The position numbers were made by a program, and so were the translations under genes. The notes beneath the pieces are model-generated. The model worked only from the letters and a program-made list of their open reading frames with translations. It was not told the DNA's origin and did no database searches. Shown here in pieces: positions 286 to 44,895 of a stretch of DNA of 64,000 nucleotides. How positions within the stretch are numbered: the first letter of the stretch is position 1; every line of letters starts with the position of its first letter. This DNA comes from a virus. The stretch lies in IMG/VR virus record IMGVR_UViG_3300011113_000257, positions 46,858-110,857 of that record. One strand, 5' to 3'.

Positions 286-287
286 CT

Positions 288-1308: not shown

Positions 1309-1409
1309 TAATCGTTCCCTTGTTCATAGCAGTTGTAGCAAGTCCAACCGCTTTCGATTAGGTCATCATCTAGCAAGTCGCATTGGCAGTTTATGGTGTC
1401 CGCGTTCAT
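1308..1409 (-). CDS. 33-aa Cys-rich acidic microprotein (not in ORF track)
   Basis: MNADTINCQCDLLDDDLIESGWTCYNCYEQGND*; TAATG overlaps on both sides. Confidence 0.7.
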   Translation of the reverse strand: MNADTINCQCDLLDDDLIESGWTCYNCYEQGND

Positions 1410-1633
1410 TAGAACACTCTCCCATACTCGTTTTCAACTACTGATAAATCAACAGGTGATGTAACTTCCCATTGTTCGTATGGTGTTGGGTCGTAACTAT
1501 CTCGGCATTCGTTACACCATAGTTCGGGAAACCAACGGTGCTTTTTAGACATTTCGGCGATTGGAAAGTCTTGTTCGCAATCCACGCAAAAATCGTTTTC
1601 TTCTGGTATTTCAACTCCAAGCCATTGTGTCAT
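1409..1633 (-). CDS. small acidic Zn-ribbon protein
   Basis: CVDC...CNEC; SD AAAGGAG. Confidence 0.75.
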   Translation of the reverse strand: MTQWLGVEIPEENDFCVDCEQDFPIAEMSKKHRWFPELWCNECRDSYDPTPYEQWEVTSPVDLSVVENEYGRVF

Positions 1634-1737
1634 TTTGTTCTCCTTTTTGTTTTCGCGGGCTATCCGCTTAGTAATACTTTATCATACTATTTTGTTTGGT
1701 GCAAGTAGTAGGGGGCTTGCGCCCCCCACCGCATTTG

Positions 1738-3679: not shown

Positions 3680-3751
3680 TTTGTTTCCTCTCTTTCGCAA
3701 CCCCTTGTTGCTAGTACCTAGCGTACCCTACTTCCCTGACATTTGCAAGTT

Positions 3752-3783
3752 GAAAAAGGGGCGAGTTTCCCCGCCCCCTTTTC
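3752..3783 (-). terminator. representative intrinsic terminator of the early cassettes
   Basis: AAGGGGCG/CGCCCCCTT GC stem flanked by A/T runs; similar hairpins at about 86-120, 543-580, 1710-1727, 2255-2283, 2688-2712, 3379-3402, 6066-6095, 6926-6960, 8925-8960, 10570-10607, 11217-11262. Confidence 0.75.
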
Positions 3784-3798
3784 GTGCGCCCTCCGCGC

Positions 3799-4272: not shown

Positions 4273-4440
4273 TTTGTTTTCCCTTCCGTAAGCAAGTCCG
4301 TCTTGCTCACTCTGTAAGTTTATCATACTAGCCTGACATTTGCAACCTGAACGCGAAACTATTTTTTCCGCGCCCGCGCCAGAAAAAATTTCAGTTTTCA
4401 ATTTGAGATAAACGCGGATTTCTCCGCGCTCTCTCGTTTG

Positions 4441-4833
4441 TTATTCGACTTCGTTATCCGCAAGGATTTGCTTGACGGCTTCAATCGCTTCCTCTAGAGT
4501 TTCGCAAACTTCCCACCACTCATCGTCAGCCTTTGGCTCATAGAACTCAAACCAATTATTATTCACCCAGACATCTTGCTCTGCGTGTGCCGTGTTGAAC
4601 TCTGCCAACTTCGTGTCCGTGTCAATCCCTGCGGAGATTAGGTCGCTTGTGTAACGCCAGACATCTCCGTTAGGTAGGTTGATACGCATCTCGCCGTTAG
4701 ACCCAATGTGAAACTCTCGGTCGCCCGACTTAACTACGGCTAGAACTTCCCAGCCGTTAGTCCAGCAATAGAACGCCGAGTCTGTCTGCTCTGGGTTCTG
4801 CTCTACTAAATACTCAACCGTGTAATCCATCAC
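4441..4833 (-). CDS. acidic hypothetical protein
   Basis: 130-aa ORF, last in the operon from promoter 5466-5495. Confidence 0.75.
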   Translation of the reverse strand: MMDYTVEYLVEQNPEQTDSAFYCWTNGWEVLAVVKSGDREFHIGSNGEMRINLPNGDVWRYTSDLISAGIDTDTKLAEFNTAHAEQDVWVNNNWFEFYEPKADDEWWEVCETLEEAIEAVKQILADNEVE

Positions 4834-4838
4834 GCCAC

Positions 4839-5108
4839 CTAGTCCTCGTCTGACTCAACTCGGACACCGCAAGTAAAACACTTTAAGTTTTCCCAGTCAG
4901 GGTACTCGTAGCAAGTATCGTGGATACAGTCGTTAGTATCGAACACCGCGCCAAGTAGTTCCAACAAACCGTCAAGGTACTCTACGGGGAACGCTTTCAT
5001 CTCGCCGTACTTTGACGGTAAGGAAACAACTCCCGACATAATGTCCTCTGAAAGTTCCGCAAGAAAGTCAAACTGCTCTTGCAACATTTCATAGTCAATG
5101 TTTTTCAT
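4839..5108 (-). CDS. acidic protein with C-terminal CxH/CxxC Zn ribbon
   Basis: CIH...CFTC; ATGA overlap. Confidence 0.7.
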   Translation of the reverse strand: MKNIDYEMLQEQFDFLAELSEDIMSGVVSLPSKYGEMKAFPVEYLDGLLELLGAVFDTNDCIHDTCYEYPDWENLKCFTCGVRVESDED

Positions 5109-5422
5109 TTTGTTTTCTCCCCATTGAGTTCTAGCAACACCGCATTTAGAGTGTCGTAAAGTTCTTCGTCTTTTGCGTAGTTCGCATCATTGTCAATCGC
5201 GTGAGTCCACTCATTTGTTGCCGTGTCGTAAACAGTTCCGTCAAAGTAACGAGTTTCATTTTCAATGTTCCACTTGCCTGTTTCGGTATCGAAACACACT
5301 ACATAGTGATGCTGTGTAGTTGAGGGGTAGTAACCCTGCTCGCCTTCACAAGTTTTGCAGAACGGTGTGCAGTCGAAACCGCCCCCGTGTTCTGGACACT
5401 CAACCATTTCTAGTTTGCTCAT
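5105..5422 (-). CDS. Cys-rich hypothetical protein
   Basis: CPEH-GGGFDCTPFCKTCEG motif; SD GAAAGGGA. Confidence 0.75.
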   Translation of the reverse strand: MSKLEMVECPEHGGGFDCTPFCKTCEGEQGYYPSTTQHHYVVCFDTETGKWNIENETRYFDGTVYDTATNEWTHAIDNDANYAKDEELYDTLNAVLLELNGEKTK

Positions 5423-5516
5423 TTTGTTTCCCTTTCTTAGAGTGAGTCCCTCTCGCTCTATGATAAGTATACGCCCCTAGCCTGACATTTGTCAAATCAG
5501 GGGCGCACACCGCGTG

Positions 5517-5753
5517 TTACCAATTCAGTTCTTCGCCATTCTCGTCTTGGAAGATTAAGTCACTCGTATCTGCCGTGTGACCCCAACCGCAACTAAAGTC
5601 ATTCTCAATCCACACTTCAACTCTCTGCATAATGTCCCACAGGGTTATTTCACTATGTGGAGTTTCAGTTTCCGCGTGTATGTCGTTAGCAATCTGGTTT
5701 ACGTCATACGAGACAACTTTCATCACGTTAATGCGTTCTGGTAATTCTCTCAT
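5517..5753 (-). CDS. acidic hypothetical protein
   Basis: TAATG-coupled ORF. Confidence 0.7.
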   Translation of the reverse strand: MRELPERINVMKVVSYDVNQIANDIHAETETPHSEITLWDIMQRVEVWIENDFSCGWGHTADTSDLIFQDENGEELNW

Positions 5754-5920
5754 TATTTCTCCATTCCGTGTCCAACGTGGACTAATCTAATTTCTGGCTC
5801 GCCGACTTCGATTCCCCAGCCATTCTTTAGTAGTTCTAATGCTTCTTCTTCGCTAGTGCAAAGTTTAAGATTCTTAGAGTCAATCTCTAATGTCTTGATT
5901 ACTTGAAACTCGTAACGCAT
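5753..5920 (-). CDS. small hypothetical protein
   Basis: Start re-called at MRYEFQ (SD GAAGGGA), promoter 5963-5991. Confidence 0.7.
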   Translation of the reverse strand: MRYEFQVIKTLEIDSKNLKLCTSEEEALELLKNGWGIEVGEPEIRLVHVGHGMEK

Positions 5921-6101
5921 TTGGTTTCCCTTCCTTAGCAAGCCCTTCTTGCTAATAACTCTATGATACATCAATACCCTGACATTTGCAACTTGAACAC
6001 GAAATTATCTTTTCCCGTGCCTTCGCTGAGTTCCGCATAAAAAATTTCAGTTTTGTGAAACCAAGAAACCCCTAGCCTTTCGGCTAAGGGCATCTTTTGG
6101 A

Positions 6102-6278
6102 TTAGGCGGTGATTAGTCCCTCGTCTATCAAGGTGCTGGCAATTCTGCCGTAAGAACCTTGCAGTTGCCACGCTAGTCGCGTATCAACTAGTTGCTGAAA
6201 CAAGTTAATTGTTTCTTCTCTGTCAAGATTACCTTCTTCGAACTCGATGATTAAGTTCGTGATGTCGTGTAGTGACAT
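6102..6278 (-). CDS. small conserved phage protein (LFQ.LVD..LAWQLQGSYGR type)
   Basis: Start MSLHDI with SD GAAAGGGA; promoter 6321-6350. Confidence 0.75.
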   Translation of the reverse strand: MSLHDITNLIIEFEEGNLDREETINLFQQLVDTRLAWQLQGSYGRIASTLIDEGLITA

Positions 6279-6370
6279 TTGCTTCCCTTTCGTATTCGCC
6301 GTACTTCGGCTTATGTAGTAAGGATACACTAAACCCCTGACATTTGTCAAGGGCTTAGTGTCCCGTGTCT

Positions 6371-6799
6371 TTAGTCTTCTTCTTCGTACTCATCTTCGTC
6401 TTCGTCTTCGTCTTCGTCTTCGTCTTCACGGCATCTGTCGCAGATTGAGTCATAGTCCGCGCCAGACTCGCCACATAGTTGGCAAAACTCGTCTTCGTAT
6501 CCCTGTGGGATTATGCTTTCGTATCCCTCGTTAGGGTCGTCCTCGTTAGTTGCTACTGATTGCACAAACTTTAGCCCGCAAGAGCCTTCGTACCAACGCT
6601 TGACTAGGGTAAGCATTTCGTCAGGGGTTGAGTCGGTAACAAGGAAACTTCCGTCCTCGCCATAGCCCCACTCTGCACTCTGCTTGACTTGCTGGTCGTC
6701 TTTCAAGATGTAAATCTTGTGACAACCATCAAACGAGATGCCTTTGGCTTCGTCAAGTTCTGCCTTAACTTCGTCCCAGATGTCTTGGAAAGTAGTCAT
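6371..6799 (-). CDS. acidic protein with C-terminal Zn ribbon and poly-D/E tail
   Basis: FDGCHKIY motif, CQLC..CDRC, EDEDEDEDEDEDEYEEED tail encoded by (GACGAA)n. Confidence 0.8.
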   Translation of the reverse strand: MTTFQDIWDEVKAELDEAKGISFDGCHKIYILKDDQQVKQSAEWGYGEDGSFLVTDSTPDEMLTLVKRWYEGSCGLKFVQSVATNEDDPNEGYESIIPQGYEDEFCQLCGESGADYDSICDRCREDEDEDEDEDEDEYEEED

Positions 6800-7032
6800 T
6801 TTGATTTCCCTTTCTATCAGTAAGCCTTTCTTGCTGATAAAACTATCATACCACACTATCCTGACATTACCTAATCGGGGCTTTAGCGCGTGTCGCAGAA
6901 AAAATTTCAGTTATCTAAAATTACGAAACCCGTACCAAAAAAATTTCAGTACGGGCTTCGCTTAGAAACTGTCGGAAGGCTGACACACGCTGGAAGGACG
7001 ATACCCCCCGACAGGGCTTATGGGTTATTCAA

Positions 7033-8841
7033 TTATCCGTTACGGTTTCCCATAGCGGTTAGTGCTTTCGCACACGCTTGTCCGATAGCGTTGGACGCTT
7101 CCGTTGGAGAAGCCACACCGCTTAACGGCTCTACCGTTGTCCCCCTTAGGAGACTTCTGGCACTTGAACCGTTGTCGAACGGTATCCATACTACCGCCAC
7201 GCCGTTGCTCTCACACTGCGACACCCAACTCCGAGCCTTTTGGGTCTCGTCGTAAGTGTACACGCCGTCGGATACCACGACTAAAAGCCTAGCACCGTCA
7301 CCGTTGAGCAGGTTCAACTCGCCGTCTATTGCCTTGAACGCCTTGTCAAACTTTTCCGTACCGTCTGGTGCTGTGTACACCGTTACGTCCGTTAAGTGCT
7401 GACCAGACTTGAGCGTAGGGAACACGTCGTCGCCGTAGTACACCATCGCGCACTTGCCTTGGACTCGCCGAGTTGCTTCCGACATTACCCACGCCGTTGT
7501 CGCCATCGGTTGCATCGCCGAATTCATCGAACCGCTAATGTCTACCATCACGCCGACCTTTAGTGTTGGCTCGTCCGTTGTCTTACGGACTCGCTTACGC
7601 CAAGGTTGCGCCGTTGGTTGCATACCTATCGCCTTGTGTGCTTCGTTCTGCATAGCCGAGCGAGTTCGTAGCCGTCCACCGGGAACAATGCTACGCACTT
7701 CAACAACATCGCGCTCGCGATACTTTGCACGCTCTAATGCGCTCGCCACTTTCACCGCGCTGATACGCTCGTCTGCCGTAGGCTTACGAACCTCTGTTGC
7801 ATAACTACGAGTACGAGTAGATGCTGATGGACCAGTACCTCGCCCGAAAACTTCTTGAGCAACTTTAACATTCTCACGACTTTGCTTTGCACTGTCCGCG
7901 CGATTCTTAACTTCCTCTTTCCATTCCTCTGACTCCTCTTGGTCTGCAAGTTCGGAGTAGTTAGACACCGCAACATTTTCAGATGCTTCTTTCAACTTCT
8001 CAAGTAACTCTTTTAATGCTTCGCCAACTTCAGATGTAGACTCACCACTTCCACCAGAAGTACTTTCACTACCAGAATTATCCTCGCCACGTTCGTTTGC
8101 AAGGTCGCGAACAATCTGTGCCCACTCACGCGCTAATGGATAAACAGGTTCCATGTTTCGATGGTCTGTGTGTGTAATGAAACGCTCGATAACACTGCAT
8201 AACTTTTCAACAGTTTCGTTGCCTAAGTATTCCTCTATAAATTCTGTAACCTCTAGAACATCATCACGCTCTAAAATTCCACCAATGATTCGACCATGCA
8301 CTAGTCCAACTAAAGTTGCAATGTTTGAAACACTACCCTGTGTCAAATCCTCTGACTCAAAATCTGCAATAACAATTTCCATTGCACTTGAGCATAGAAA
8401 TGCGCGATACCGAGCATCAAGCAAAATACCTTGTGCTTCGATTCGTGATTCCTCAAGAAGCATTAGTGCTTCGTACTCGTCTGACTTTAATGCTTCGTAA
8501 GCAGACTCTAAACTCCACTTCGAGAAACGAGCGTGAAATGCTTCGTGCATTATCGCGCCAGTTGCCTTTGGAAATTCGTACTGCGTTGAGCGTTGATTAA
8601 TGTCGCTAATGTGTTCTGGCTTAATGCCAAACCCGAAAGCAATTTCTGTGTTCACTTCAATTTCTGCAATCGCTGGCTTGTAGCACGCTGGCGCATTGCT
8701 ACCTGCAACAGGAGATGCAAGTCCAACTAAATCACCGCGACCTGCGATTGAGTTTGCTAGTTGCGCAATCTGCGAACCAACTGCATACCATTCTGGATGT
8801 CTTTCACCAGAAGTCTTACTGTGTGTGTCAATGTGTGCCAT
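7033..8841 (-). CDS. VWA-domain protein with N-terminal HExxH metallopeptidase-like motif (CobT-like MoxR partner)
   Basis: HEAFH, LEESRIE, MIDAS DISGSM and VVSDG; start re-called at MAHIDT after promoter 8885-8913 and SD. Confidence 0.85.
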   Translation of the reverse strand: MAHIDTHSKTSGERHPEWYAVGSQIAQLANSIAGRGDLVGLASPVAGSNAPACYKPAIAEIEVNTEIAFGFGIKPEHISDINQRSTQYEFPKATGAIMHEAFHARFSKWSLESAYEALKSDEYEALMLLEESRIEAQGILLDARYRAFLCSSAMEIVIADFESEDLTQGSVSNIATLVGLVHGRIIGGILERDDVLEVTEFIEEYLGNETVEKLCSVIERFITHTDHRNMEPVYPLAREWAQIVRDLANERGEDNSGSESTSGGSGESTSEVGEALKELLEKLKEASENVAVSNYSELADQEESEEWKEEVKNRADSAKQSRENVKVAQEVFGRGTGPSASTRTRSYATEVRKPTADERISAVKVASALERAKYRERDVVEVRSIVPGGRLRTRSAMQNEAHKAIGMQPTAQPWRKRVRKTTDEPTLKVGVMVDISGSMNSAMQPMATTAWVMSEATRRVQGKCAMVYYGDDVFPTLKSGQHLTDVTVYTAPDGTEKFDKAFKAIDGELNLLNGDGARLLVVVSDGVYTYDETQKARSWVSQCESNGVAVVWIPFDNGSSARSLLRGTTVEPLSGVASPTEASNAIGQACAKALTAMGNRNG

Positions 8842-8978
8842 CTCTGGCTCCTTCCTTTTGTACGCCCCTTTGACGTACTCTGTGAGTTTATCATACCTTC
8901 TTGATATTTCCAAATTGAAGGGTGGGGAGTCGGGAAACACTCACGAAAACCGACTCCCCTTAGCAAGGATGAAAGGGA

Positions 8979-10010
8979 CTAAATCCTTGCTGGCTTGTAT
9001 TCCGCACCAAACACGCGAGACAGAACATCTGCCACGATTGGTCTGTCCATCTCTGGTGCAGAAGCAAGTAAGTTCGAGATACCAAACGGAACCCCGAATG
9101 TTGTAACGATGTCGCGGAACGCTAAAAGTTCGCGCATCTGTGGAGCCCACGAGACTTCACCAGACTCTTGTTTCTTAGCAAGATTCTGCGCAACAGTAAC
9201 GAGGTTGCTAGGTACACCTAAGGTGCGAGCAAGTGACCAGTCAGTTGCCATCTCTGCTTGAACAGTAAAGCGAGATAGTAAGGCTTCTGAAAGTCGTACT
9301 CCCGGAGCATTAGGGTTAGTTGCACCCACAACATAAAAGTCAGGGTGAACCTTAACAGTACCTCTGTCAGGATTAGCAGTGACAGTAATTTCGCCACGTC
9401 CATCCATCACGCCATACAAACCTGAAAGTTGCTTAGGGTCAATCAGACCAATCTCGTCAATGAACAAGACTGCACCTTCCTCTACTGCTCGCACAAGTGG
9501 ACCATCTACCCACTCGAAACCACCAGCAGGATTCTGTACGAACCCACCAAGGAAGTCTGACATTTCGATGTCAGCAGTTCCAAGTACTGTGTACATATTT
9601 CCACCAAACGCTGCTTCGACTAATGCAGTCTTACCAGTTCCCGGTGCGCCATAAAGCAACGCGAACATTGGCGAGCCAACTTTGTCTGTGACAGACAAGG
9701 TAGTTGCTTCACGAGCCTTGCGTAATGTTGCAACATCTTGATGTTCACCCCAAGTACGAGCGTGGTACACACTTCCATTTGGACGAATGTATTGACTACT
9801 ACTTGATTCAAGTGTGACACCTGATGTTGTAATTGGTGTCGCTACGCGAGCAACGCGAGGTGCGCGTTCTACGAAACGACCTTGTGGTAAAACCTGCGAG
9901 ATTACTCTCATAGATGCTTCTGTTGATACTGACTGCGCAACCATGTCGTCTAACATGGAAGTGAATTCAGTTCCCCACTTTGAATAAATTTCATTTTCTT
10001 TGATGCTCAT
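8979..10010 (-). CDS. MoxR/CbbQ/CobS-type AAA+ ATPase
   Basis: Walker A GAPGTGKT, WVDGPL, Walker B LFIDE, ATNP, ALLSRF. Confidence 0.9.
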   Translation of the reverse strand: MSIKENEIYSKWGTEFTSMLDDMVAQSVSTEASMRVISQVLPQGRFVERAPRVARVATPITTSGVTLESSSSQYIRPNGSVYHARTWGEHQDVATLRKAREATTLSVTDKVGSPMFALLYGAPGTGKTALVEAAFGGNMYTVLGTADIEMSDFLGGFVQNPAGGFEWVDGPLVRAVEEGAVLFIDEIGLIDPKQLSGLYGVMDGRGEITVTANPDRGTVKVHPDFYVVGATNPNAPGVRLSEALLSRFTVQAEMATDWSLARTLGVPSNLVTVAQNLAKKQESGEVSWAPQMRELLAFRDIVTTFGVPFGISNLLASAPEMDRPIVADVLSRVFGAEYKPARI

Positions 10011-10026
10011 AATTTTCAGTCCCTTT

Positions 10027-10494
10027 CTACGCTGTGAACATTTCTGGATAAGATAATGCAGTTCGAGTCTGGTTGATTCGATGCACGACCTTAGTTGGAG
10101 TCTTACCTTCTGTTACATCTGTCAAGTCTTTCTGTGAAACTTCCACAAAAAATGGCTTGCCAATAAGTACGCTACTAATTGAAACGCGCTTCATAAACCA
10201 CGCTAGTGTTTGAAGTCGCTCCTCGCGATGGTTCTCTGATGTAACCCCTGTTGCTGGGTCTACGAGACTACGCTGAAGTGCTTGCACCTTCCATTGTTTC
10301 TTTGGCTGTGATGCCGAAAGACGACGATAGTAGACACGCGCTGTCGAAAAATTTCCAAGTTCATTCCAACCATCTGGAGTAATGAACATCTGAAAAATCT
10401 GTTGGTATTCATTCTTGAATTCCGCGTACAAGGCTGTGCCCTGTACTTTCTTTTCTGGGTCTGTAAGCAGACCAAGAGGTGTTTCTGTTGACAT
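10027..10494 (-). CDS. hypothetical protein
   Basis: 155-aa ORF; promoter 10541-10569; SD GAAAGGA. Confidence 0.75.
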   Translation of the reverse strand: MSTETPLGLLTDPEKKVQGTALYAEFKNEYQQIFQMFITPDGWNELGNFSTARVYYRRLSASQPKKQWKVQALQRSLVDPATGVTSENHREERLQTLAWFMKRVSISSVLIGKPFFVEVSQKDLTDVTEGKTPTKVVHRINQTRTALSYPEMFTA

Positions 10495-10618
10495 AGTGAG
10501 TATTTCCTTTCTTTATGTCTTTTGTCCCTGTGACATTTCTAGTTTAGCATAACGCTATGATGGAGTCAAATCGGGGTAGGAGTATGTCTAAGGAGACCTA
10601 CCCCGACCTGACTTCTAA

Positions 10619-10951
10619 CTACTTAGCGACAATGATGTCGTAAGTAGAAACCTTTGAACAGGTTTCGTATGCTTCTGGATAAACTTCTTTCAGAAGCGTT
10701 GAGTCCACATTGGTGCGTGAACGTGGTGCAAGTTCCACTACTGGAAGCCCTGCGACAGTACCAACCTTGGCAGAACCAATTAGGTCACGAATTGCGCTGT
10801 CAAGTTCTGACTTTGCTTTTTCGAGTTCCTTGATTGCAAGTTTTGCGTTAGCAAAATCTGCAAGCAGGTTCGCGATGTTGGTGTTGTCCAATTCAACGGT
10901 GGACGTTTCCGTGACAACCTGTGTTGTCGTTACCTGTGTGCGTATGCTCAC
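10619..10951 (-). CDS. coiled-coil protein resembling the C-terminal part of YqaJ/Gp157-like phage proteins
   Basis: LAIKELEKAKSELDSAIR...VDSTLLKEVYPEAY; GTG start after SD GAAAGGGG. Confidence 0.55.
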   Translation of the reverse strand: MSIRTQVTTTQVVTETSTVELDNTNIANLLADFANAKLAIKELEKAKSELDSAIRDLIGSAKVGTVAGLPVVELAPRSRTNVDSTLLKEVYPEAYETCSKVSTYDIIVAK

Positions 10952-11265
10952 TTTGGCGATTCCCCTTTCAAGGAAAGTTCGATAGACCATCTAACGAACA
11001 GTTCTAACTTTACGCCCTACACCTGACATTTGTCAAATCGAGCGTTTCCACCCCGATTTCTCGGGCTGTTTTCGTTCATAGAACCAATGTAACACATTAC
11101 CCTGACATCCGCAAGTTTATTTGATAACGATTTGATAACGGACCGGGAACTGAAATTTTTTAGTTCCGGGTTGTTGAAGGCGGGCTCCAATAAAAAATTT
11201 CACTTTTGGGCAAAAAGAAACCCCCGTTCGAAACTCACTGGTTTCGATTTAACGGGGGTTGGTCT

Positions 11266-11454
11266 TTAGAGTTCTTGCTCCCACTTTTCGATGTCAAACA
11301 TTTCCCAGATTTCATCATCTGTGAAATTTTCCTTCAACCAAATAGCGGTGCGCTTTTGGACTACTGGGTTTTCGTCTACTGGCTTAGCAGTTCCGAAGAT
11401 GCTACCCATAAGGGCTTGGTATGCGTGTGCGTTTGCTTCATGCGGTTTGTTCAT
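11266..11454 (-). CDS. small hypothetical protein, leaderless
   Basis: ATG lies 6 nt after -10 TACCGT. Confidence 0.65.
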   Translation of the reverse strand: MNKPHEANAHAYQALMGSIFGTAKPVDENPVVQKRTAIWLKENFTDDEIWEMFDIEKWEQEL

Positions 11455-11915
11455 ACTCCTACGGTAACACGAGGCACTGACATTTCTTCAGGTGTCCAAA
11501 TGTAGGGGAGGTCACTTGGCGTATCGGGAAAAAATTCAGAGTAGTACTCAGGGGCTTTGCGCAAGAGATTCGAGCGGTGCGATTCGTGGAACCGTGAGTT
11601 CCCGATGAACCAAGGCAAGCCTTCGTACCGCTTACCTTGCACCGTTAGGTCTCGCATCTTCTCGATGAAGTACGGTAGCAGGTTGTCGACATACCCTCTC
11701 CGTTTCCACTCCAGCGACATTATTGAACCGTAGTACGCGAGTGCGAACTCGTGCCCACGCCACATCTTGGTCGCAGGGTGGTTGACCCAACCCGTTGTCT
11801 CGCCGTTGAGCGCCATCAGTATTTGCTTGGTCTCAACCCGTTGCTTCCCGAGCCGTCGGTAGTCCAATACCCTCGCCGTCTTTTCAAAATCGGCGTATGG
11901 CAGGAACGTCTGCAT
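11451..11915 (-). CDS. pyrimidine-dimer DNA glycosylase/endonuclease V-like protein (MSMEG_6728 family)
   Basis: MQTFLPY...LDYRRLGKQRVE...NHPATKMWRG...SHRSNLLRK...Y. Confidence 0.85.
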   Translation of the reverse strand: MQTFLPYADFEKTARVLDYRRLGKQRVETKQILMALNGETTGWVNHPATKMWRGHEFALAYYGSIMSLEWKRRGYVDNLLPYFIEKMRDLTVQGKRYEGLPWFIGNSRFHESHRSNLLRKAPEYYSEFFPDTPSDLPYIWTPEEMSVPRVTVGV

Positions 11916-12076
11916 TAGCCCTCGCCGTTCTCTCGAACTAGCGCGATGGCTCTCGCCATGCCTGCAGACCAACCGTCGTTAAACGCGACATCCGTCTCGT
12001 CCATTTCCTCAGCGTCCGTCATGTCTTCTTCGGTTACCCGTTCCCACTCCTCCATTAAAATTTCTAATAGTGTCAT
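11915..12076 (-). CDS. small acidic protein
   Basis: MTLLEILMEEW..., ATGA-coupled. Confidence 0.6.
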   Translation of the reverse strand: MTLLEILMEEWERVTEEDMTDAEEMDETDVAFNDGWSAGMARAIALVRENGEG

Positions 12077-12234
12077 GTGGTCACGCCCGCTAACGCCCAC
12101 GCCTTCTTGAGGTCGCGGTCGAAGTCGCGTTGCAACTTATCCCACGCCGTTTCGTCAAAAAGGATTGGGTGCGCCTCTTGCTTATTTCTGCTAAGCACTC
12201 GCCGTATAAAAGATTTCAGTTCCGTGTAGTTCAT
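12073..12234 (-). CDS. 53-aa hypothetical protein (not in ORF track)
   Basis: MNYTELKSFIRRVLSRNK...; SD AGGAGGAG, leader hairpin, TTGACA-17-TAAAGT promoter. Confidence 0.7.
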   Translation of the reverse strand: MNYTELKSFIRRVLSRNKQEAHPILFDETAWDKLQRDFDRDLKKAWALAGVTT

Positions 12235-12312
12235 GTTCTTGCTCCTCCTTTGTTTTGCGGGGCACGCCGTGTGCCTCGCCGTCGTGATGTATTAACTTTA
12301 TGATAAAAGTTT

Positions 12313-12597
12313 CTAGATGTCAAGCGCGTACTCTGGGAGTTCCATCCCTGCCCCAACTAACGCGCGCCGTATTAAACCTTGCTGACGCGAAGTTGTCTGC
12401 GAGTATTTATCTACGTTCAGATAAGTAACCTGACGTTTTTCTGTGTTTATACTAGCCATCCGTGTTGAGTAAGAGTAGATGTCGTAGATGATGTCGCCAC
12501 CAGCGTCGCACCATTTCGAGGCTCTCATGCTGTGACCGTGCTTGAATGGTTTGAATGCTGGAATAAATTCTTCTGCAATTTCTTTGTAACTAGGCAT
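12313..12597 (-). CDS. conserved phage hypothetical protein (YSYST...KYSQTTSRQQ type)
   Basis: 94-aa ORF; promoter 12640-12668. Confidence 0.75.
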   Translation of the reverse strand: MPSYKEIAEEFIPAFKPFKHGHSMRASKWCDAGGDIIYDIYSYSTRMASINTEKRQVTYLNVDKYSQTTSRQQGLIRRALVGAGMELPEYALDI

Positions 12598-12682
12598 TTT
12601 TATTTCCCTTCCCGTTGATGTGTCTCACCAACAAGAACCATTCTATCATACCAACCTGACATTCGCAACTTAAGGCACGCCA

Positions 12683-13036
12683 TTAGATTTCTTCAGTGTC
12701 TTCCATTAGTTCAGGAAGATTTTCCTCAACCATCTCCCAGAAGGTATCAAAAATTTCGATATTCTCTCGAACCTCTTCAACGGGTGCATCGTATTCAATG
12801 GTAACGATTTCGTGGACGTGCTCTTCGTCTTCCTCAACGTGGTGAGTTCGAAACACATAGTCACCGTCTTCGGTGATTAGGTAATTAATAAACATCACGG
12901 AGCACTCAGATGTGAGCGCGACTTGGTATGTCTCGGTTAGGGGGTCGTAGATAGGACAGCAAGCAGAAATGATGTCGTGCATGTAGTGCCCTTTTTTGAT
13001 GACACGGCTTGGGTGAATGTTGTTCGGTTTGTTCAT
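12683..13036 (-). CDS. very acidic hypothetical protein, leaderless
   Basis: ATG at 13036 lies 6 nt after -10 of promoter 13043-13071. Confidence 0.7.
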   Translation of the reverse strand: MNKPNNIHPSRVIKKGHYMHDIISACCPIYDPLTETYQVALTSECSVMFINYLITEDGDYVFRTHHVEEDEEHVHEIVTIEYDAPVEEVRENIEIFDTFWEMVEENLPELMEDTEEI

Positions 13037-25137: not shown

Positions 25138-25690
25138 CCTTTAATCTGAAGAGGCGGTAGATTTTTCTACCGTCTTTTCTTTTTTTCCAAACACGGAAGA
25201 ATCCAAGTTCAGAACCAATCACGCGAACTCTTTTATAAACTCCTGTGCGGGTTCCTTCTGTATCAGAACCTGCTTGGTCACTTGTTGTATCACCCTCGAC
25301 AACTTCATAACCAACTGTTAACCCCCACTTGCGAACCACCCCAACAACAATACCTACATGCGTTGCTCTTCCTTCTTTCTCGAAGTCATAGAACGCTAGG
25401 TCTCCTTCTTTAACTCTCCACCATTGTATCTGTTCAGAGTTTTTAAGTAAGTGTTCATAACCAATATTACAAGACGCAAACCCTTTTTTACTTGAAACTT
25501 CAACTAACTCACTTGCACCGATTTTTGCAAAGCACCACGAAACGAACATGGCAGAGTATGGATTGTTGTTTAACCCGTACCACTTTCCGTACTTACTATC
25601 TCGATTAGGTCCGTTGGTGTAACCAACCTCTTCTAAAGCGACACTTATAAGTTCGGACTTGGAAGTTTTAATCTTCGGAGGATTCTGCAT
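25106..25690 (-). CDS. CHAP-domain amidase-like protein (catalytic Cys replaced by Ser)
   Basis: KYGKWYG...PYSAMFVSWCF, GFASC, GDL.FYDF, HVGIV, EGDT. Confidence 0.75.
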   Translation of the reverse strand: MQNPPKIKTSKSELISVALEEVGYTNGPNRDSKYGKWYGLNNNPYSAMFVSWCFAKIGASELVEVSSKKGFASCNIGYEHLLKNSEQIQWWRVKEGDLAFYDFEKEGRATHVGIVVGVVRKWGLTVGYEVVEGDTTSDQAGSDTEGTRTGVYKRVRVIGSELGFFRVWKKRKDGRKIYRLFRLKVTESTSSIHE

Positions 25691-26087: not shown

Positions 26088-27164
26088 ATGCCTGAAGTAT
26101 CAATACCAAAGAGTGTACCAACTGCTGATGACTTATTTGGTGCAAAGACGAAACAACTTGCGCGTTTCTGCGAAGAACCAGCGTGGTCTGCCTATAACCC
26201 GTCTATTTGCTACACCGAAGAGCATGGCTACTTGGTACTCCTACGCTCCTCAAACGGCTGGCTACGCGACCACAGACCAGAGTGGCAAGTAGAAACAGGT
26301 GAAGAACTTACCACCGAAGATTCTTATGAAACTCCCGGAGAATGGTATCAGGCTTCATATATTAATTCCGTTTTAGGAACAGAGAAGTATTTTAGAAATA
26401 GAATGTTTCTTGCAAGTCTAAACACAAAAACACTTAATCTTTCTTACTTGAAAGAAATAGACCTAACTCAGGCTTACGCACAAGCCCCAGCAAAACTTAT
26501 AAGAGGAATTGAAGATGGAAGACTCTACTACGACGGAGAAACGCTACGAATCTCTGCGACGGTATTTGAAATTGGGCACATTAATGTTGCTCGTATTTGT
26601 TCTGTTGAACTGGACTTAAGCGGAGATAGCCCACGCGGTGTTTCTTTTGAGATGTTTGATTCTCCTATTAATGAAGACACCGTTGAGAAAAACTGGATGC
26701 CTGTTCACAAGTCATCTATTTTTAATCCAGATGATGTTAATTTTGATTATCTCTATTCTTCAGGAAAGACTTACACGATTAAAGACCACTCCCTCAAAGA
26801 AGTTGGTGGACCAGCACCATCCGTTAGAGGTGGCTCACAACTTATCGGTTTAGAGAATGGAACTATGTTAAGCATTGTTCATCAGTGCGTTTCAGCCGAG
26901 TACATCAGATTTGCTAACCTAAGCAAGGAAGCACTATTCCGTCGTCGCTATGTTCACCGCTTTATGCAATACGACGAAAAGGGAAGAATCATTAAAGTTT
27001 CCGATATGTTTAACTTCCTAAACAAGTCAATAGAGTTTGCAGGTGGAATGGCAATCCACGAAAACAAACTGCTAGTTAGTTTCGGTGCCCTAGATTCATC
27101 AGCACACATAGCATCCATCCCCCTTAAAAACGTCTTGGCGAATCTTCGTCCTCCTCGTATTTAA
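26088..27164 (+). CDS. five-bladed beta-propeller glycosidase-like protein (GH130/GH43-like), copy 1
   Basis: YNPSI, IEDGRL, EKNWMP, RGGSQ, IEFAGG. Confidence 0.7.
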   Translation: MPEVSIPKSVPTADDLFGAKTKQLARFCEEPAWSAYNPSICYTEEHGYLVLLRSSNGWLRDHRPEWQVETGEELTTEDSYETPGEWYQASYINSVLGTEKYFRNRMFLASLNTKTLNLSYLKEIDLTQAYAQAPAKLIRGIEDGRLYYDGETLRISATVFEIGHINVARICSVELDLSGDSPRGVSFEMFDSPINEDTVEKNWMPVHKSSIFNPDDVNFDYLYSSGKTYTIKDHSLKEVGGPAPSVRGGSQLIGLENGTMLSIVHQCVSAEYIRFANLSKEALFRRRYVHRFMQYDEKGRIIKVSDMFNFLNKSIEFAGGMAIHENKLLVSFGALDSSAHIASIPLKNVLANLRPPRI

Positions 27165-27209
27165 GTCCTATGAAGTCGACAAAATCGAACTTTACATTAT
27201 AGAGGAACA

Positions 27210-27587
27210 ATGGTACTTAGCGGAGAAGACGACGACAACGAGTCTGAAAAAGATGTAGAAGATGTAATTGACTTCCTCGTTGCAACAGGTGCTTTAGAAC
27301 TCACCTCTATAGATAAAAACGGAGACCCTGTTTACAGGATTACTAGTATTTGTAAAGACTTGTTTCCCGATTTGTATTATGAACATATGAGACAAGCAGA
27401 TGACACCTCCTTTGCTTTATGGCAAAAAGGTTTACTAGAAATTGCTTTTGGTGAAGATGGTACTAACTATGTCACGATGACCGCAGAGAACTACTTAAAG
27501 TATTTAGATATTGCTGACGAGTTATCCGAAGAAGAGGAAAGCGTTATGTTTGTCTTAATAAATAAGAACATCTTGGACGCTCAGTAA
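27210..27587 (+). CDS. acidic hypothetical protein
   Basis: 125-aa ORF, SD GAGG. Confidence 0.7.
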   Translation: MVLSGEDDDNESEKDVEDVIDFLVATGALELTSIDKNGDPVYRITSICKDLFPDLYYEHMRQADDTSFALWQKGLLEIAFGEDGTNYVTMTAENYLKYLDIADELSEEEESVMFVLINKNILDAQ

Positions 27588-27590
27588 AAC

Positions 27591-27619
27591 TTGACACCAC
27601 TCTAGGCTTTTTGTAGCCT
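27591..27619 (+). promoter_or_regulatory. sigma-A-type promoter TTGACA-17-TAGCCT with no downstream CDS
   Basis: Perfect -35 and 17-bp spacer; predicted +1 (27626) is the first base of a hairpin. Confidence 0.75.
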
Positions 27620-27625
27620 ATACAT

Positions 27626-27802
27626 AGTTCTTGATGTATTAGGTGTTTTCTGCCAGTTCTACTAATACACCAAGACTTTTCGCAGAAATGTGGTTTGTTC
27701 TCCTTTCCTACATTTTTTTGGAAGCGGGTTGCTCCGCCACTTGCGAACACGGAGCATATATAAAAACCGCCCCACCGAATTTAATTCTGCGTAGGGCGGT
27801 TT
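27626..27802 (+). ncRNA. putative three-hairpin small RNA with anti-Shine-Dalgarno loop
   Basis: Stems 27626-27642/27662-27677, 27684-27693/27708-27717, 27730-27736/27750-27756; loop 2 UUUGUUCUCCUUUC; ends in a terminator. Confidence 0.65.
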
Positions 27803-27806
27803 ATTT
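27764..27806. terminator. bidirectional intrinsic terminator
   Basis: AAACCGCCC...GGGCGGTTT with A/T tails, between the sRNA and the convergent NlpC/P60 gene. Confidence 0.75.
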
Positions 27807-27814
27807 ATTAAGTT

Positions 27815-28336
27815 TTATAGTCTTCTAAACTGGATTTTCTTACTCCAGATTTTTTCAATTTTTACTACTCCACCAGGCTTCGGAGAATGTAAAACTTTTC
27901 CGTTTCCTGCGTAGATTGCGACGTGGTAAATATGACCACCTGACGAAAAGAAAAATACCAAGTCACCGACCTTAGCATCGCTACGAGCAATCTTTTTTGA
28001 CTGCTTGTATTGACCTCCAGTGGTTCTTGCTACTTCCTTACCTTTCTTCTTGTAGATGTACTGAGTAAACCCAGAACAGTCAAAACAGTTAGGACCTGTT
28101 CCACCTTTGCAGTAAGGGGTTCCTAAATACTTTAGACCAGTTTTGTATGTGGATAGAAGGTTTGCTAAAAGGCTTTGATTAGCCCTAGCCTTACTTTTTA
28201 TTTCTCCTAGACTTATATTCGACTTTACTGATAATTCATTAGCGTTGGCTTGACCCTGGGCTACTGGTGGCGATACGACCATGACGGACATAAGAAGCGC
28301 AGTAACGGTGGTCAAAACCTTGGTTCTGACTAACAT
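27815..28336 (-). CDS. secreted NlpC/P60 peptidoglycan endopeptidase
   Basis: Signal peptide; LGTPY..GG....FDCSGF, GDLVFF, HVAIY, LHS. Confidence 0.9.
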   Translation of the reverse strand: MLVRTKVLTTVTALLMSVMVVSPPVAQGQANANELSVKSNISLGEIKSKARANQSLLANLLSTYKTGLKYLGTPYCKGGTGPNCFDCSGFTQYIYKKKGKEVARTTGGQYKQSKKIARSDAKVGDLVFFFSSGGHIYHVAIYAGNGKVLHSPKPGGVVKIEKIWSKKIQFRRL

Positions 28337-28487
28337 AGGCTTTAAGTTTACCAGACTGGTATAATATTCGGCAAATCCAAACCTTACAAACCCCACTAAA
28401 ACGGTTTTTGGATTTGTCGTCTTCTAAAGTTTTTTATCCAGTGAAGTCTGAAAAAATGACTTTTCTATTATATAGAAATCAAAACTG

Positions 28488-38585: not shown

Positions 38586-41225
38586 CTATCTAGCAAATCT
38601 AGTAGCAGTGCCCCAGTCAATTTCGTTATTAGTCACCTGACGAGGCTTCAAGGAACGACCCATAATTATTGCTTGAGAACCCTGACCTACGACTTCTACG
38701 TTTCTTTCCAACATCTTACGCTGGAATGCAGTCTGAGTCATAGGTTTTTCGCCACGCTCTTCAGCCCAAATACGGTAAATAACATACAAAGACTTAATTG
38801 GGGTAGTAGCACCCTCATTTAAAATAGTTTCTTCTTCAAGGAACAATCCAATACGGTCTTCATTCTTTCGGTAGATTTCTGCTGCTTCAGAGACAACTGA
38901 ACACCAACCAAGAGCATCACGAGAACTTGAACCAAGCATTTTTATTGCACCTTCAACAGCCCAAGAAAGAACAGCAGGAAGAGCGCCCTCTGGGTCAAAA
39001 ATGTATTCTTTTAAGTCTGGGTCTGGATTCTCGGGAACAAATGTAAATGGAATTGGACGAATACGTCTCCACATTGCATCATCATTAATAATTGGACGAT
39101 GATTAGTAGATATCCAAAGTTTTGCTTGAGCCTTAAAAGTAAATGGACGCTCACCAGGAGAACGCGCAGAAATTTCTTCGGAGCCAGTTAATTTTTTAAC
39201 TGAGTTCTCTTTTAAGCGCTCTGAGTCAGGAAGTTCGTCAACCCAAACCATACGGCGACCACGAAGTTCAGCCCAGTGATAAAGGTCAGAACCTGATGCA
39301 TTACCGTCACCACTAGCAAGAATGCTTGAGTCAAATGGCCAGGCATATTGTTGTGTACCAAGACATTTTACAATTGCTTCAACAAATGTATTCTTACCAG
39401 AACCTGCAGGACCGTAAACCAAAAACATCAAGTCATACTTACTAAGACCAGTAAGAGAGTAGCCAGCAGCACGTTGTAGCCAATCTTGGAACTCTTTATC
39501 TCCACCAGTTGCAAAATTTAGAAACTCCTCCCAGCGTATGTTACGAGTACCAGGAGAATAAGCAACAGGTGCTCTACGAGTTATGTATAGGTCTGGTCTA
39601 TTTTTTAGTAGTTCTCCAGAACGTAAATCAACAACGCCATTTAAGACTCCAAGCATGTGAGGATTAGAATCCCACTGGTCTACTGCAACTCTAATACGAC
39701 GGTCAGAGTTTGCGTTCTCGATTGCAGACTTTAGTCTGGCATTTGATTTAGAATTTTGCGCCCATTTAATAACGTCTGATTGTTTGTCAGAATCACCATC
39801 ATAGTTTTTTACTTCACTAGCAATAACAGGAGCAAGACTTTTTGCAAGTTCTTGCATTTCTAAACCCTCAATGTCTGGCTTCCAGTAACCACCGTCCCAG
39901 TGAAACCAACCAAGACCCTCTGAGTAACGAACTGCTTCACCGAATGTATCTACAAATCTACGACCATTACCTGTATCGGATAAGGTACGTTGCCCAACGA
40001 TTCCGCCATCTTCTTCGCTAATAGCATCAGTATCTTTTGGAACATTTAAGTTAGCAAGAGAAGATGCTTCAGCAACTGATTCACCTTTGTGGATACTTTC
40101 AGATACGGCACCAGCAAGAGTTCCCGGCAAAAATTCTGACTCTCCAGAAAAATCTGATGTTGATTTAGGATTAAATTTTGCTTGAGTTTCTTCAGTTGAT
40201 TTTTTAGCCCAACCGTTTTCCGCATCGCCAATACCGGGCCAAAGCATATTTGACTTAGGGTTGTTGGCAACAAAATCTATGGCGCGACGAACGTGCATAA
40301 GTAGACCGCCCTGACCTTCAAGAGGTAGAGGTGGTTTTACCTTTTCAGCATTAAAGCGAATCATTAAAGTTTCAAGCGCCTCGCGACCGTGAGGTTTATC
40401 TACTGGATATTCATTAGCAAGAGAGCAAGTTAGTTTATAAATATCTACAGCGCGAGAGCCTTCTTCAATTCCATCTTCAAGAATTTTACGAATTTCTTCT
40501 TTGTTTTTACCAAAATCAACATCGTCAAAGGTTGCACTCCAGTCCATAGCCCCAAGAGAAGAACTTAGAGATTTCGAAGAAGTAGAACGACGACCACGCT
40601 TACGCAAAAAATTTAAAAGTTCTTCTGGCGCTTGAGCCATCTCGGTTTCCCAAGGAGCCTTTCCTTCAGCCCATTCATAATTTTGACCAGAGAAGTGGCG
40701 TGAAGGTGCAATAAGAACATAACCATTGTGCTTAATATCAATACCTTTGATACCAGCAGATTTTAAATTTCCAACTAAATCTTCAGATGCATCGCATCGA
40801 TAAAAAATATGACGACCACGCATAGTCTTTCCACCAAGCGTGTACTCACCAGTGAGTGCTTCAACAGTTGGAGGCAGATTACCTTCAACTAGTTTTTCAA
40901 ACTCTTCAAAAGAATCGTGACCACCCGAGCGAGGGTCAATATCAATTACAAAAAATCCTGAAGGACGACAGAAGACACCAATATTTGCTTCTGAATCACG
41001 CTCCCACCAGCGTTCAATAACATTTACGTCACTAGATGCTTCAGTGTGCCATCCGCTAATCGCTGGATGCTTACCTACATCTTTAGGTTCAGCGTGGGCT
41101 TGGCTACAAGTACAACGACCGCCAACAATTCCATAACAAGGGAGAATTTTCCATCCTTGTGAGGCATACCAAGAAGTTGCCTTACTAAATCTGCCATCAA
41201 TGTTTGCTTCATCATGCCGAGACAT
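38586..41225 (-). CDS. bifunctional primase-polymerase fused to D5/P4-type SF3 helicase
   Basis: GKHP, ANIG, IDIDPR, GRHIFY, GYVL.APSRH; D5_N region; GPAGSGKNT, DE, TNHRP, MWRR. Confidence 0.92.
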   Translation of the reverse strand: MSRHDEANIDGRFSKATSWYASQGWKILPCYGIVGGRCTCSQAHAEPKDVGKHPAISGWHTEASSDVNVIERWWERDSEANIGVFCRPSGFFVIDIDPRSGGHDSFEEFEKLVEGNLPPTVEALTGEYTLGGKTMRGRHIFYRCDASEDLVGNLKSAGIKGIDIKHNGYVLIAPSRHFSGQNYEWAEGKAPWETEMAQAPEELLNFLRKRGRRSTSSKSLSSSLGAMDWSATFDDVDFGKNKEEIRKILEDGIEEGSRAVDIYKLTCSLANEYPVDKPHGREALETLMIRFNAEKVKPPLPLEGQGGLLMHVRRAIDFVANNPKSNMLWPGIGDAENGWAKKSTEETQAKFNPKSTSDFSGESEFLPGTLAGAVSESIHKGESVAEASSLANLNVPKDTDAISEEDGGIVGQRTLSDTGNGRRFVDTFGEAVRYSEGLGWFHWDGGYWKPDIEGLEMQELAKSLAPVIASEVKNYDGDSDKQSDVIKWAQNSKSNARLKSAIENANSDRRIRVAVDQWDSNPHMLGVLNGVVDLRSGELLKNRPDLYITRRAPVAYSPGTRNIRWEEFLNFATGGDKEFQDWLQRAAGYSLTGLSKYDLMFLVYGPAGSGKNTFVEAIVKCLGTQQYAWPFDSSILASGDGNASGSDLYHWAELRGRRMVWVDELPDSERLKENSVKKLTGSEEISARSPGERPFTFKAQAKLWISTNHRPIINDDAMWRRIRPIPFTFVPENPDPDLKEYIFDPEGALPAVLSWAVEGAIKMLGSSSRDALGWCSVVSEAAEIYRKNEDRIGLFLEEETILNEGATTPIKSLYVIYRIWAEERGEKPMTQTAFQRKMLERNVEVVGQGSQAIIMGRSLKPRQVTNNEIDWGTATRFAR

Positions 41226-41414
41226 AAATCACCTCGGAAAGTAAACTAGGCAGAAATCCCTGTGTCATTTAATCGTTTTCTCCTTTCAAGGACGTTTGCG
41301 CGTCGTAAGAAGACTATACCTTAACCCAAGCAAAAAGCAATAGAGCCACCCTAAAATAGTAAGGTTTATGCTATAGTAGTCATACGCGCTATAAGCGAAT
41401 CTACAGTATACACC

Positions 41415-43392: not shown

Positions 43393-43881
43393 TTAGGGCT
43401 TCTTTCGAGAAGCCCTTTCTTTTTTCTTATTTTCACGGTCAGCGTGGTAAGCCTCTACAGCATTTGCGCTGGAGCGTCCACGCCAAGCAAAACCACATTC
43501 AGTGCAGGTAACTACTTTTGCGCGAGTCCAGCGTCCACCAGGCGGAAGTTTTTCAATAGATGTTGCTAACTTGCTAGGACGGGCAGTGCAGTAAGGACAG
43601 TTTGGCGGACGGTTACGTTTACGTTCTTCGCCATTGTAAGCCACAGAGAGCGCTCTACGGAGTTCAATCTCGTCCTTGCCTCCCCAGATACCCCAAATCT
43701 CTCTGTGCTCCAGTGCCCATTGTAGGCAGTCCTTTCGAGCAGGACAAGAGAAACATAAATTTTTTGCTTTATTTCTTTCTTCTGAATCCTTTGAATGGAA
43801 CCATGTCATATATTTTTTGTTTTCTGGTTTTGCGCATAAAGCATCGCGTTGCCAGTTAAGACTAATAGCAGGTTTCCACAT
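43393..43881 (-). CDS. whiB: WhiB-family regulator with C-terminal Zn ribbon
   Basis: W...ALC...AK.LC.SCP...CL.WAL....GIWGG; CPYC...CTEC. Confidence 0.85.
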   Translation of the reverse strand: MWKPAISLNWQRDALCAKPENKKYMTWFHSKDSEERNKAKNLCFSCPARKDCLQWALEHREIWGIWGGKDEIELRRALSVAYNGEERKRNRPPNCPYCTARPSKLATSIEKLPPGGRWTRAKVVTCTECGFAWRGRSSANAVEAYHADRENKKKERASRKKP

Positions 43882-44595: not shown

Positions 44596-44895
44596 CTACA
44601 GCAACTTAAAATTAGTTATAGTCCGTAAAGGTATTCTTTTTTGACTTCTTATATTGGACAGTTCTTTAGGGGATAGACCACCCCAAACACCAAAAGTTTC
44701 GTGATGTATGCCCCATTCAGCACAATCATTTATGTGAACACAGTTAGCGCATAACTTCTTAGCCAAATGCACATTAGTAAAGTTTGTGTCTATTTGTTCT
44801 GGGTCATCTTCGTCTGCAGAATAAAAAAGGTCTCCACCAACTTCTCTACAAATAGGAGTTTCAAATTCCCAAGGTTCGCGAAGTTTTTTACTCAA
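44596..44895 (-). CDS. whiB: WhiB-family regulator
   Basis: C....DLFY...AKKLCANC....C.EW.....GVWGGLS. Confidence 0.88.
   Translation of the reverse strand: MSKKLREPWEFETPICREVGGDLFYSADEDDPEQIDTNFTNVHLAKKLCANCVHINDCAEWGIHHETFGVWGGLSPKELSNIRSQKRIPLRTITNFKLL

Follow-up and report, generated by a model that had tools for sequence, protein, structure and literature searches.

A probable small RNA of an actinobacterial phage presents a loop complementary to early-gene ribosome-binding sites

The 64-kb stretch of DNA analyzed here, called the window below, is the right-hand part of a 110,857-nt IMG/VR virus record. Within it, a gap of 227 nt separates two convergent genes. The gene on the left (27210..27587, + strand) encodes a protein of 125 aa that belongs to no known family, and the gene on the right (27815..28396, - strand) codes for an NlpC/P60 hydrolase. 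The candidate RNA gene described in this report is located in this gap (Table 1). WhiB genes are a hallmark of actinophages, and the window carries two members of this family (43654-43854 and 44662-44859, both on the - strand), which score 61.7 and 42.8 bits and thus both exceed the Pfam cut-off. In addition, the primase-helicase of the virus (879 aa) shares 68% identity with its counterpart in Actinomycetia phage DSL-LC01, which derives from a lake, and 50% with the corresponding proteins of large Microbacterium phages. The two WhiB genes and the likeness of the primase-helicase to actinophage proteins therefore indicate that the virus is a phage of Actinobacteria.

There are no tRNA genes in the window. 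Distant relatives, whose NlpC/P60 proteins are ~50% identical, carry genes for tRNAs (Thr, Tyr, Asn) directly after the hydrolase gene, at the position that corresponds to that of the candidate RNA.

A first-pass annotation, made from the sequence of the window, had proposed a promoter of the form TTGACA-17-TAGCCT at 27591-27619, and both the letters and the coordinates are as it claimed. The distance between the -35-like box and stem 1 of the RNA is fixed at 29 nt in all four sequences available for this locus. The corresponding -10 region is less regular. A perfect TATAAT is found in the relatives in the 27612-27617 register, which is two bases upstream of the one first proposed and leaves a spacer of 15 nt, and at the 17-nt spacer the relatives read TAATCT. 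A consensus promoter scan of the window did not list the -10 candidate at 27612..27619. Because the window has a poor -10 box and the relatives have theirs at the unusual distance of 15 nt, a dedicated promoter for the candidate RNA is only plausible. Inspection of the region revealed no terminator between the gene at 27210..27587 and the hairpins, so read-through transcripts from this gene would carry the hairpins as a 3' UTR in any case.

The bidirectional terminator recognized by the first-pass annotation has the expected GC-rich stem and U-rich tails on both strands, and it is common to the candidate RNA and the convergent NlpC/P60 gene. Relatives keep its stem, and its loop is variable. 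The intrinsic terminator looked for at the 3' end of a trans-encoded sRNA gene is thus present at 27764-27806.

Table 1. Coordinates of the candidate RNA, its predicted targets, and related features (window positions unless a locus is named).
Feature	Position	Strand	Description
-35-like box	27591..27596	+	TTGACA; 3 nt after the stop codon of 27210..27587; invariant in the window and all relatives
Candidate -10 region	27612..27619	+	TAGCCT at 27614-27619 in the window, 17-nt spacer
Predicted noncoding RNA	27626..27806	+	~175-181 nt, from inferred start to end of terminator U-tract
Hairpin 1	27629..27675	+	13-14-bp stem; variable 19-nt loop (27643-27661)
Hairpin 2	27677..27724	+	10-bp stem plus weak 6-bp outer stem
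Loop 2	27694..27707	+	UUUGUUCUCCUUUC; anti-Shine-Dalgarno core CUCCUUUC plus spacer complement UUUGUU
Hairpin 3	27730..27756	+	7-bp stem; 13-nt loop CCACUUGCGAACA
Two-way intrinsic terminator	27764..27806	both	GC-rich 9-bp outer stem; U-rich tails on either strand
Predicted target	1634..1646	-	RBS and spacer AAAGGAGAACAAA, abutting the ATG of the 74-aa early ORF 1409..1633
Weaker predicted target	5423..5436	-	GAAAGGGAAACAAA ahead of the ATG of 5105..5422; consensus early RBS type
10-nt complement of loop 2	41278..41287	-	GAAAGGAGAA; serves as SD for an upstream ORF (18 codons) that overlaps the start of the primase
Leaderless-type starts	20351; 23659; 26000	+; +; -	Six others besides
tRNA loci in distant relatives	L011:3488-3721; L013:3384-3820; L018:3573-3645		

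When positions 27626-27806 were folded with RNAfold, the prediction contained three hairpins, whose open loops measure 19, 14, and 13 nt, and after them the GC-rich terminator. Stem 1 is composed of 5 and 8 bp with one A.C mismatch. The number of stems, their loops, and the lengths of stems 2 and 3 (10 and 7 bp) had been given correctly beforehand, and only stem 1 proved to be shorter than announced (13-14 bp, not 16). Loop 2 has a predicted mean unpaired probability of 0.71, and cofolding with a target places the intermolecular helix on this loop. The folding z-scores are -1.5 to -2.3 for the three-hairpin body and reach -3.1 when the terminator is included, which makes the thermodynamic evidence weak when taken alone. 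Moreover, the raw folding z-score is better on the - strand than on the + strand. Despite this, we take the + strand as the functional one, because the G-U pairs of the fold, three of them in the inner stem of hairpin 2, would become A.C mismatches on the - strand, and the G-U-compatible changes seen among relatives in stems 1 and 3 likewise suit the + strand only.

Three further distinct sequences of the locus were found, in which the gap is 81-90% identical. These comprise a 119.7-kb contig (G001, locus L003), a set of three identical short contigs (L004-L006), and a contig that ends inside hairpin 3 (L002). The same small clade emerged whether homologues were sought with the two flanking proteins, with a DNA pattern made from the invariant core, or with a protein profile. 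Exact-core scans of viral, metagenome, and genome contigs recovered only the same four sequences as homologues, and the three extra metagenome matches to the core are antisense to an ordinary RBS and ATG in unrelated DNA. Likewise, a profile search with the flanking 125-aa protein led to the same five loci. No match to the region was obtained with blastn among 50,697 phage records, and the covariance model R1 detected no paralogue in this genome. In Actinomycetia phage DSL-LC01 and in three IMG/VR relatives that are more distant, the same model detected no homologue.

Each of the four distinct sequences folds independently into the same three hairpins. In stem 1, one U-A pair is replaced by C-G and several G-C pairs have changed to G-U, and the A.C mismatch of the window is an A-U pair in the relatives. 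The same stem carries paired deletions in L002 that retain its length of 14 bp. Stem 3 exhibits one compensatory change from U-A to C-G and one change from C-G to U-G. Across the alignment of these four sequences, standard pairs occupy 96.5% of pair cells, compared with 40-55% in controls where partners were displaced by 1-3 columns. Of 500 shuffles, 27 match or exceed the observed covariation score. The comparison of relatives called for by the first-pass annotation thus yielded a fold kept in four sequences, two compensatory pairs, and paired indels, and the support from covariation is real but thin given so few sequences.

Hairpin 2 is invariant in all relatives, and hence offers no covariation evidence. 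This invariance was also considered as a sign of selection on loop 2 and was rejected. The clade is shallow, the flanking coding DNA is 88-96% identical, and the flanking genes contain invariant runs of 116, 51, and 47 nt, so the 48-nt invariant block around loop 2, which is no longer than such runs, is silent on selection. Conservation of the loop, whose absence would have counted against the first-pass annotation, is therefore present and carries no weight, because the flanks are equally invariant.

No reading frame on either strand is conserved among the four sequences compared. For the 61-codon frame at 27643..27828, the GTG start at 27643 is lost, and a 1-nt insertion shifts the frame in L004. 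A 46-codon frame that begins with the ATG at 27688 is open in three sequences and would specify a hydrophobic peptide. However, the length of this peptide is unstable (46, 76, or 39 aa, depending on the genome), and the changes within its frame, five nonsynonymous to one synonymous, coincide with stem pairs. In either case the frame has no SD and runs through the terminator, and an ORF on the - strand is interrupted by stops in the relatives. We give almost no credence to a protein product from either of the two frames. Rather, the region has the character of a noncoding unit, as the first-pass annotation supposed, whose homologues keep the stems and not the frame at 27643..27828.

The most distinctive feature of the RNA is loop 2. 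Its CUCCUUUC core is what we take to be the generic motif of the actinobacterial 16S rRNA 3' tail. A genome-wide search for complements of loop 2 returned two exact 13-mers, one at 1634-1646 and one outside the window at genome positions 43673-43685. Both end at an ATG or 1 nt before it. Further 10-mer complements all lie on the strand of the leftward early genes.

Three pairings of loop 2 had been put forward before this analysis. With 1634..1646, all 13 positions indeed form Watson-Crick pairs, for a predicted duplex energy of -17.5 kcal/mol, and the orthologous site in G001 retains 13 pairs by means of one G-U. The pairing with the RBS of 5105..5422 also involves 13 of 14 positions, as reported, with one G-U among them and an A.C mismatch at the remaining position (-12.6 kcal/mol). 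All 10 pairs at 41278-41287 are likewise present. This strong SD, which had been described as lying upstream of the primase, belongs to an 18-codon upstream ORF (41212-41268, - strand) and not to the primase ATG. This ORF overlaps the start of the primase-helicase gene in a different frame, and may serve for translational coupling or encode a leader peptide.

In the early region (window 1-13000, - strand; genome 37,000-46,857), genes are headed by a highly standardized RBS and spacer, GAAAGGGAAACAAA-AUG and its variants. A short leader hairpin, for example AUCGCAAGGGGCGAU, frequently lies ahead of this cassette, which stands before small ORFs that are unrelated to each other. A subset of these sites reads AAGGAGARCAAR-AUG, the module that loop 2 complements. 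In the entire genome, the 12-mer pattern AAGGAGARCAAR occurs five times: four copies are located directly before an ATG, and the remaining one is loop 2 itself in antisense. An identical arrangement of four plus one is found in the 119-kb relative G001, and a reversed control of the pattern has no occurrences. Loop 2 is thus, as first suggested, the antisense of an early-gene RBS-plus-spacer module and is predicted to be mostly unpaired. The four ORFs headed by AAGGAGARCAAR are early, unrelated, 46-74 aa long, and without known family; Pfam and PHROG searches with these four target ORFs and two upstream genes returned no family.

The predicted duplexes between loop 2 and the four best translation initiation regions (TIRs) have energies of -19.4, -17.5, -17.2, and -17.2 kcal/mol, and the next best TIR follows at -13.8 kcal/mol. 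The orthologous TIRs in G001 keep 13 (one G-U), 12, and 10 pairs despite sequence change. The four strong targets share one duplicated cassette and are not independent. Over the early TIRs, the mean is -9.7 kcal/mol with loop 2 versus -9.2 kcal/mol with the generic 16S tail, and TIRs other than the strong ones bind loop 2 just slightly better than they bind such a tail. Because strong pairing is limited to ~4 TIRs per genome, a global shut-off of SD-led early and host mRNAs, which would widen the initial proposal to all such messages, is not indicated.

As had been recommended at the outset, loop 2 was compared with shuffled loops of matched composition, which it surpasses both by energy and by the length of Watson-Crick matches. 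TIRs that pair at -16 kcal/mol or better number four, against a mean of 0.46 for the shuffled loops (P 0.003), and Watson-Crick matches of at least 12 nt number two, against 0.044 (P 0.003). These P values overstate independence, because the four targets derive from one duplicated cassette. The choice of measure also matters. Contiguous pairs with G-U included do not discriminate (P 0.09 for at least 12 pairs and 0.78 for at least 10), since, once a G-U counts as much as any other pair, RBSs rich in purines are matched almost equally well by shuffled loops rich in U. The raw 13-mer matches have BLAST E values of ~0.3 each. If the CUCCUUUC core is held fixed, the UUUGUU extension ranks within the top 1.5-5.6% of all 4096 six-base extensions, and none of the other five positions for its single G does better. 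Loop 2 can therefore be described as an accessible seed that exceeds shuffled loops (P ~0.003) and whose targets are common to one cassette.

The other two loops had also been suspected of having targets, and this suspicion was not borne out. Loop 1 is not conserved among the relatives, and a search for its targets returned only 10-mers at chance level. Loop 3 has a 12-nt complement inside the gene for a CHAP endolysin (25325-25336, where the gene strand is identical to loop 3). This match is at chance level and was rejected as evidence for an antisense role of loop 3, because the 227-nt region yields nine further 12-mers with chance matches in the genome and the conservation of the site is explained by its codons.

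A second stand-alone RNA with three hairpins was noticed on the - strand at L031:6931-7061 (genome 42,930-43,060), ~3.8 kb before the start of the window and 31 kb upstream of the RNA at 27626..27806. Its three loops (UCUCCCUUCUC, CCCCCCCUUUCU, and UCCCCUUUC) are all 16S-tail-like, of the YCCCUU(U)C type. The second RNA is 95% conserved in G001, with changes that are compatible with the stems, and it aligns over its full length with the Rfam ar14 model at a sub-threshold score (24.6 bits, E 0.015, cut-off 58.8). The presence of three anti-SD loops in this RNA means that the design recurs in the phage. Two strong hairpins on the early strand (8962-8991 and 10564-10613, both -) also have large loops with anti-SD-like motifs, UUAGUCCCUUUC and UCUCCUUAGACAUACU. 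Among large loops (9-22 nt, on stems of at least 8 bp), YYCCUUUC is enriched, with four occurrences compared with 0.3-0.6 expected, and these two hairpins contribute to the enrichment.

The 6C/B11 RNAs (Rfam RF01066) and the RsaE/RoxS RNAs of Firmicutes are known to use pyrimidine-rich hairpin loops to pair with G-rich RBSs, and Hfq is absent or dispensable in these systems. The candidate phage RNA likewise would direct a pyrimidine-rich hairpin loop against RBSs, and it shares its host phylum with 6C. In contrast to these RNAs, the candidate is carried by a phage, its loop 2 is a U/C mixture that resembles the 16S tail rather than a run of C, and its seed extends into the spacer of the cassette. 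No covariance match to 6C was obtained at E up to 10, and the loops of the phage RNA lack the C-run of 6C RNAs, in which the loops of two hairpins each hold six or more C residues in a row.

On paper, the phage RNA also acts in the manner of the alpha-r14/NfeR1 RNAs, three-hairpin molecules that carry anti-SD seeds in loops and block the RBS (PMC10746234). With this alphaproteobacterial alpha-r14/cuckoo group (NfeR1; Rfam RF02344), the phage RNA has in common that it is stand-alone, ~120-180 nt long, and composed of three hairpins with an unpaired anti-SD loop. Other shared traits are the silencing of mRNAs by pairing to TIRs, which for the phage RNA is a proposal, and a fixed motif carried on stems that vary. 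Unlike alpha-r14 RNAs, the phage RNA displays the motif in only one of its three loops, namely loop 2, and this motif reads CUCCUUUC with a spacer complement rather than CCUCCUCCC. It is also encoded by an actinobacterial phage, and its predicted targets are the phage's own early genes. The RF02344 covariance model (cut-off 58.8 bits) gave no match in 27000-28400 at E up to 10, nor in the window at gathering thresholds. With the whole of Rfam, there was no match anywhere in the window at gathering thresholds and nothing relevant in 27000-28400 at E up to 10. The comparison with cuckoo RNAs drawn by the first-pass annotation is thus a fair resemblance on paper, and it does not extend to membership in RF02344.

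Phages provide further points of comparison. The c4 RNA of P1 and P7 is an antisense RNA that masks an RBS within the immunity operon of these temperate phages. PreS/LPR1 of phage lambda is a recently described trans-acting sRNA that acts on host genes with Hfq (bioRxiv 10.1101/2024.10.31.621285). Both are phage-encoded small RNAs that regulate translation by pairing, as is proposed for the RNA described here, and neither is known to direct a loop resembling the 16S tail against an RBS cassette that recurs among early genes. A functional parallel is offered by the RegA repressor and the RegB endoribonuclease of phage T4, which act on T4 early TIRs and GGAG Shine-Dalgarno sites (PMC3014915). 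The parallel is one of function only, in that a phage ends its own early expression at TIRs; the T4 effectors are proteins, whereas the effector proposed here is a base-pairing RNA. The literature searched held no published description of an anti-SD-loop RNA in an actinophage. To our knowledge, trans-acting small RNAs of lytic phages have barely been characterized, and none has been established for phages of freshwater actinobacteria.

From these observations, all of which come from comparing the sequences of four close relatives, the element at 27626..27806 is probably a real phage sRNA, and repression by it of the phage's own early genes is plausible. The reading that we favor, and to which we assign slightly less than an even chance, is a phage-encoded, trans-acting sRNA of ~180 nt whose loop 2 occludes early RBSs of the cassette type. 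Transcription would proceed rightwards, either from a sigma-A-type promoter of its own after 27210..27587 or by read-through from the operon, and would stop at the shared terminator. Hairpins 1 and 3 would be mainly structural, and hairpin 2 would present a 14-nt open loop in which the mimic of the 16S 3' tail (CUCCUUUC) is extended by UUUGUU. This loop would pair with the SD and spacer of the early cassette AAGGAGARCAAR-AUG. In each genome, ~4 small early ORFs would be engaged in this way at -17 to -19 kcal/mol, and the GAAAGGGAAACAAA sites less strongly. The RBS would thereby be occluded, and translation and perhaps mRNA stability would fall as the RNA accumulates. The sequence analysis shows the layout of the element, the conservation of its structure, its lack of coding potential, and its complementarity to the RBSs; transcription of the RNA, its start point, its timing, the repression, and the choice of targets that matter are all points that we infer. 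A promoter of the host type would cause the RNA to be made together with its targets, so a switch from early expression needs extra assumptions.

Several other readings of the locus deserve consideration. The hairpins might be a structured 3' UTR or insulator of the mRNA from the 26088..27587 operon, protecting it against 3' exonucleases and separating convergent transcription, in which case the likeness to an anti-SD would be incidental. Read-through transcripts must include the hairpins in the absence of an intervening terminator, and the weak or mis-spaced -10 box, the modest z-scores, and a level of conservation like that of the flanks are all in keeping with such a role. Yet a stabilizer needs no open loops of 13-19 nt, and this reading leaves aside the TTGACA that never varies in sequence or in distance, the perfect TATAAT that the relatives possess, the far better fit of loop 2 than of shuffled loops to the RBS cassettes, and the other stand-alone RNA with three such loops in the same phage. 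On balance, we judge it unlikely.

A different role for loop 2 is also conceivable. MazF-type toxins that cut UCCUU illustrate how a factor can recognize the 16S 3' end, and the CUCCUUUC loop might act as a general mimic of this tail, either masking host SD sites to bring about shut-off or serving as a decoy for a host factor of this kind. The 8-nt core is equal to the generic actinobacterial 16S tail, pairing to most TIRs tracks plain SD strength (the early mean of -9.7 with the loop against -9.2 with the 16S tail), and several other large phage loops display YCCCUUUC with different flanks. Thousands of SD sites, however, would titrate a single sRNA, a clear gap sets four phage TIRs off from the others, and the UUUGUU extension fits the phage's own spacer better than alternatives do, so that we find general mimicry decidedly unlikely. 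Slightly less credible to us is that hairpin 2 is an evolutionary relic, an inverted and decayed early RBS cassette with no present function. On the - strand, the sequence does make a good RBS, although no start codon follows, the invariance of loop 2 carries no information, and the same 20-mer is found as the antisense of an ordinary RBS and ATG in unrelated metagenome contigs. An origin of loop 2 as an inverted copy of an early cassette was nevertheless rejected, as similarity to any cassette stops at 13 nt. Furthermore, the G-U pairs make hairpin 2 stable on the + strand only, the neighboring stems are actively maintained by compensatory change, and the position of the complement is exactly that of a loop, with a promoter-like box before it and a terminator behind it.

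The sRNA reading can be extended to a broader scheme. A division between SD-led and leaderless mRNAs is typical of Actinobacteria, and this genome does seem to contain leaderless starts of the kind that the first-pass annotation described, where the -10 box ends 6 nt ahead of the ATG. In nine genes, the end of a TANNNT hexamer lies exactly 6 nt ahead of the start codon, compared with 0-4 genes at other offsets, and this sharp peak suggests that these nine genes have leaderless mRNAs. It is therefore conceivable, although rather unlikely in our estimation, that the candidate RNA, the second RNA, and several 3'-UTR hairpins together form a translational timer made only of RNA, in which 16S-tail-like loops tuned to the standardized early RBS-plus-spacer cassettes silence SD-led early messages as the RNAs build up. 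Leaderless middle genes, which have no SD, would escape this silencing. The second RNA, the enrichment of such loops, and the leaderless peak make this broader picture coherent, short of proof.

If repression of the phage's own early genes by anti-SD mimicry were true, phages could time gene expression with RNA alone, and a phage would be seen to make use of the actinobacterial split between SD-led and leaderless messages. If the timer were real as well, it would be the RNA counterpart of T4 RegA/RegB in an actinophage. The locus also provides a compact test system, in which a single loop of 14 nt faces four target sites that are nearly identical.

Similar loops are encountered in DSL-LC01, the closest named relative. 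An 18-bp hairpin at L048:13216-13261 (+ strand; OQ999401.1 93,216-93,261) carries the loop CUCCCCUUUC, and another hairpin at ~4,200 presents CACCUCCGA. These loops may be analogous to the anti-SD loops described above.
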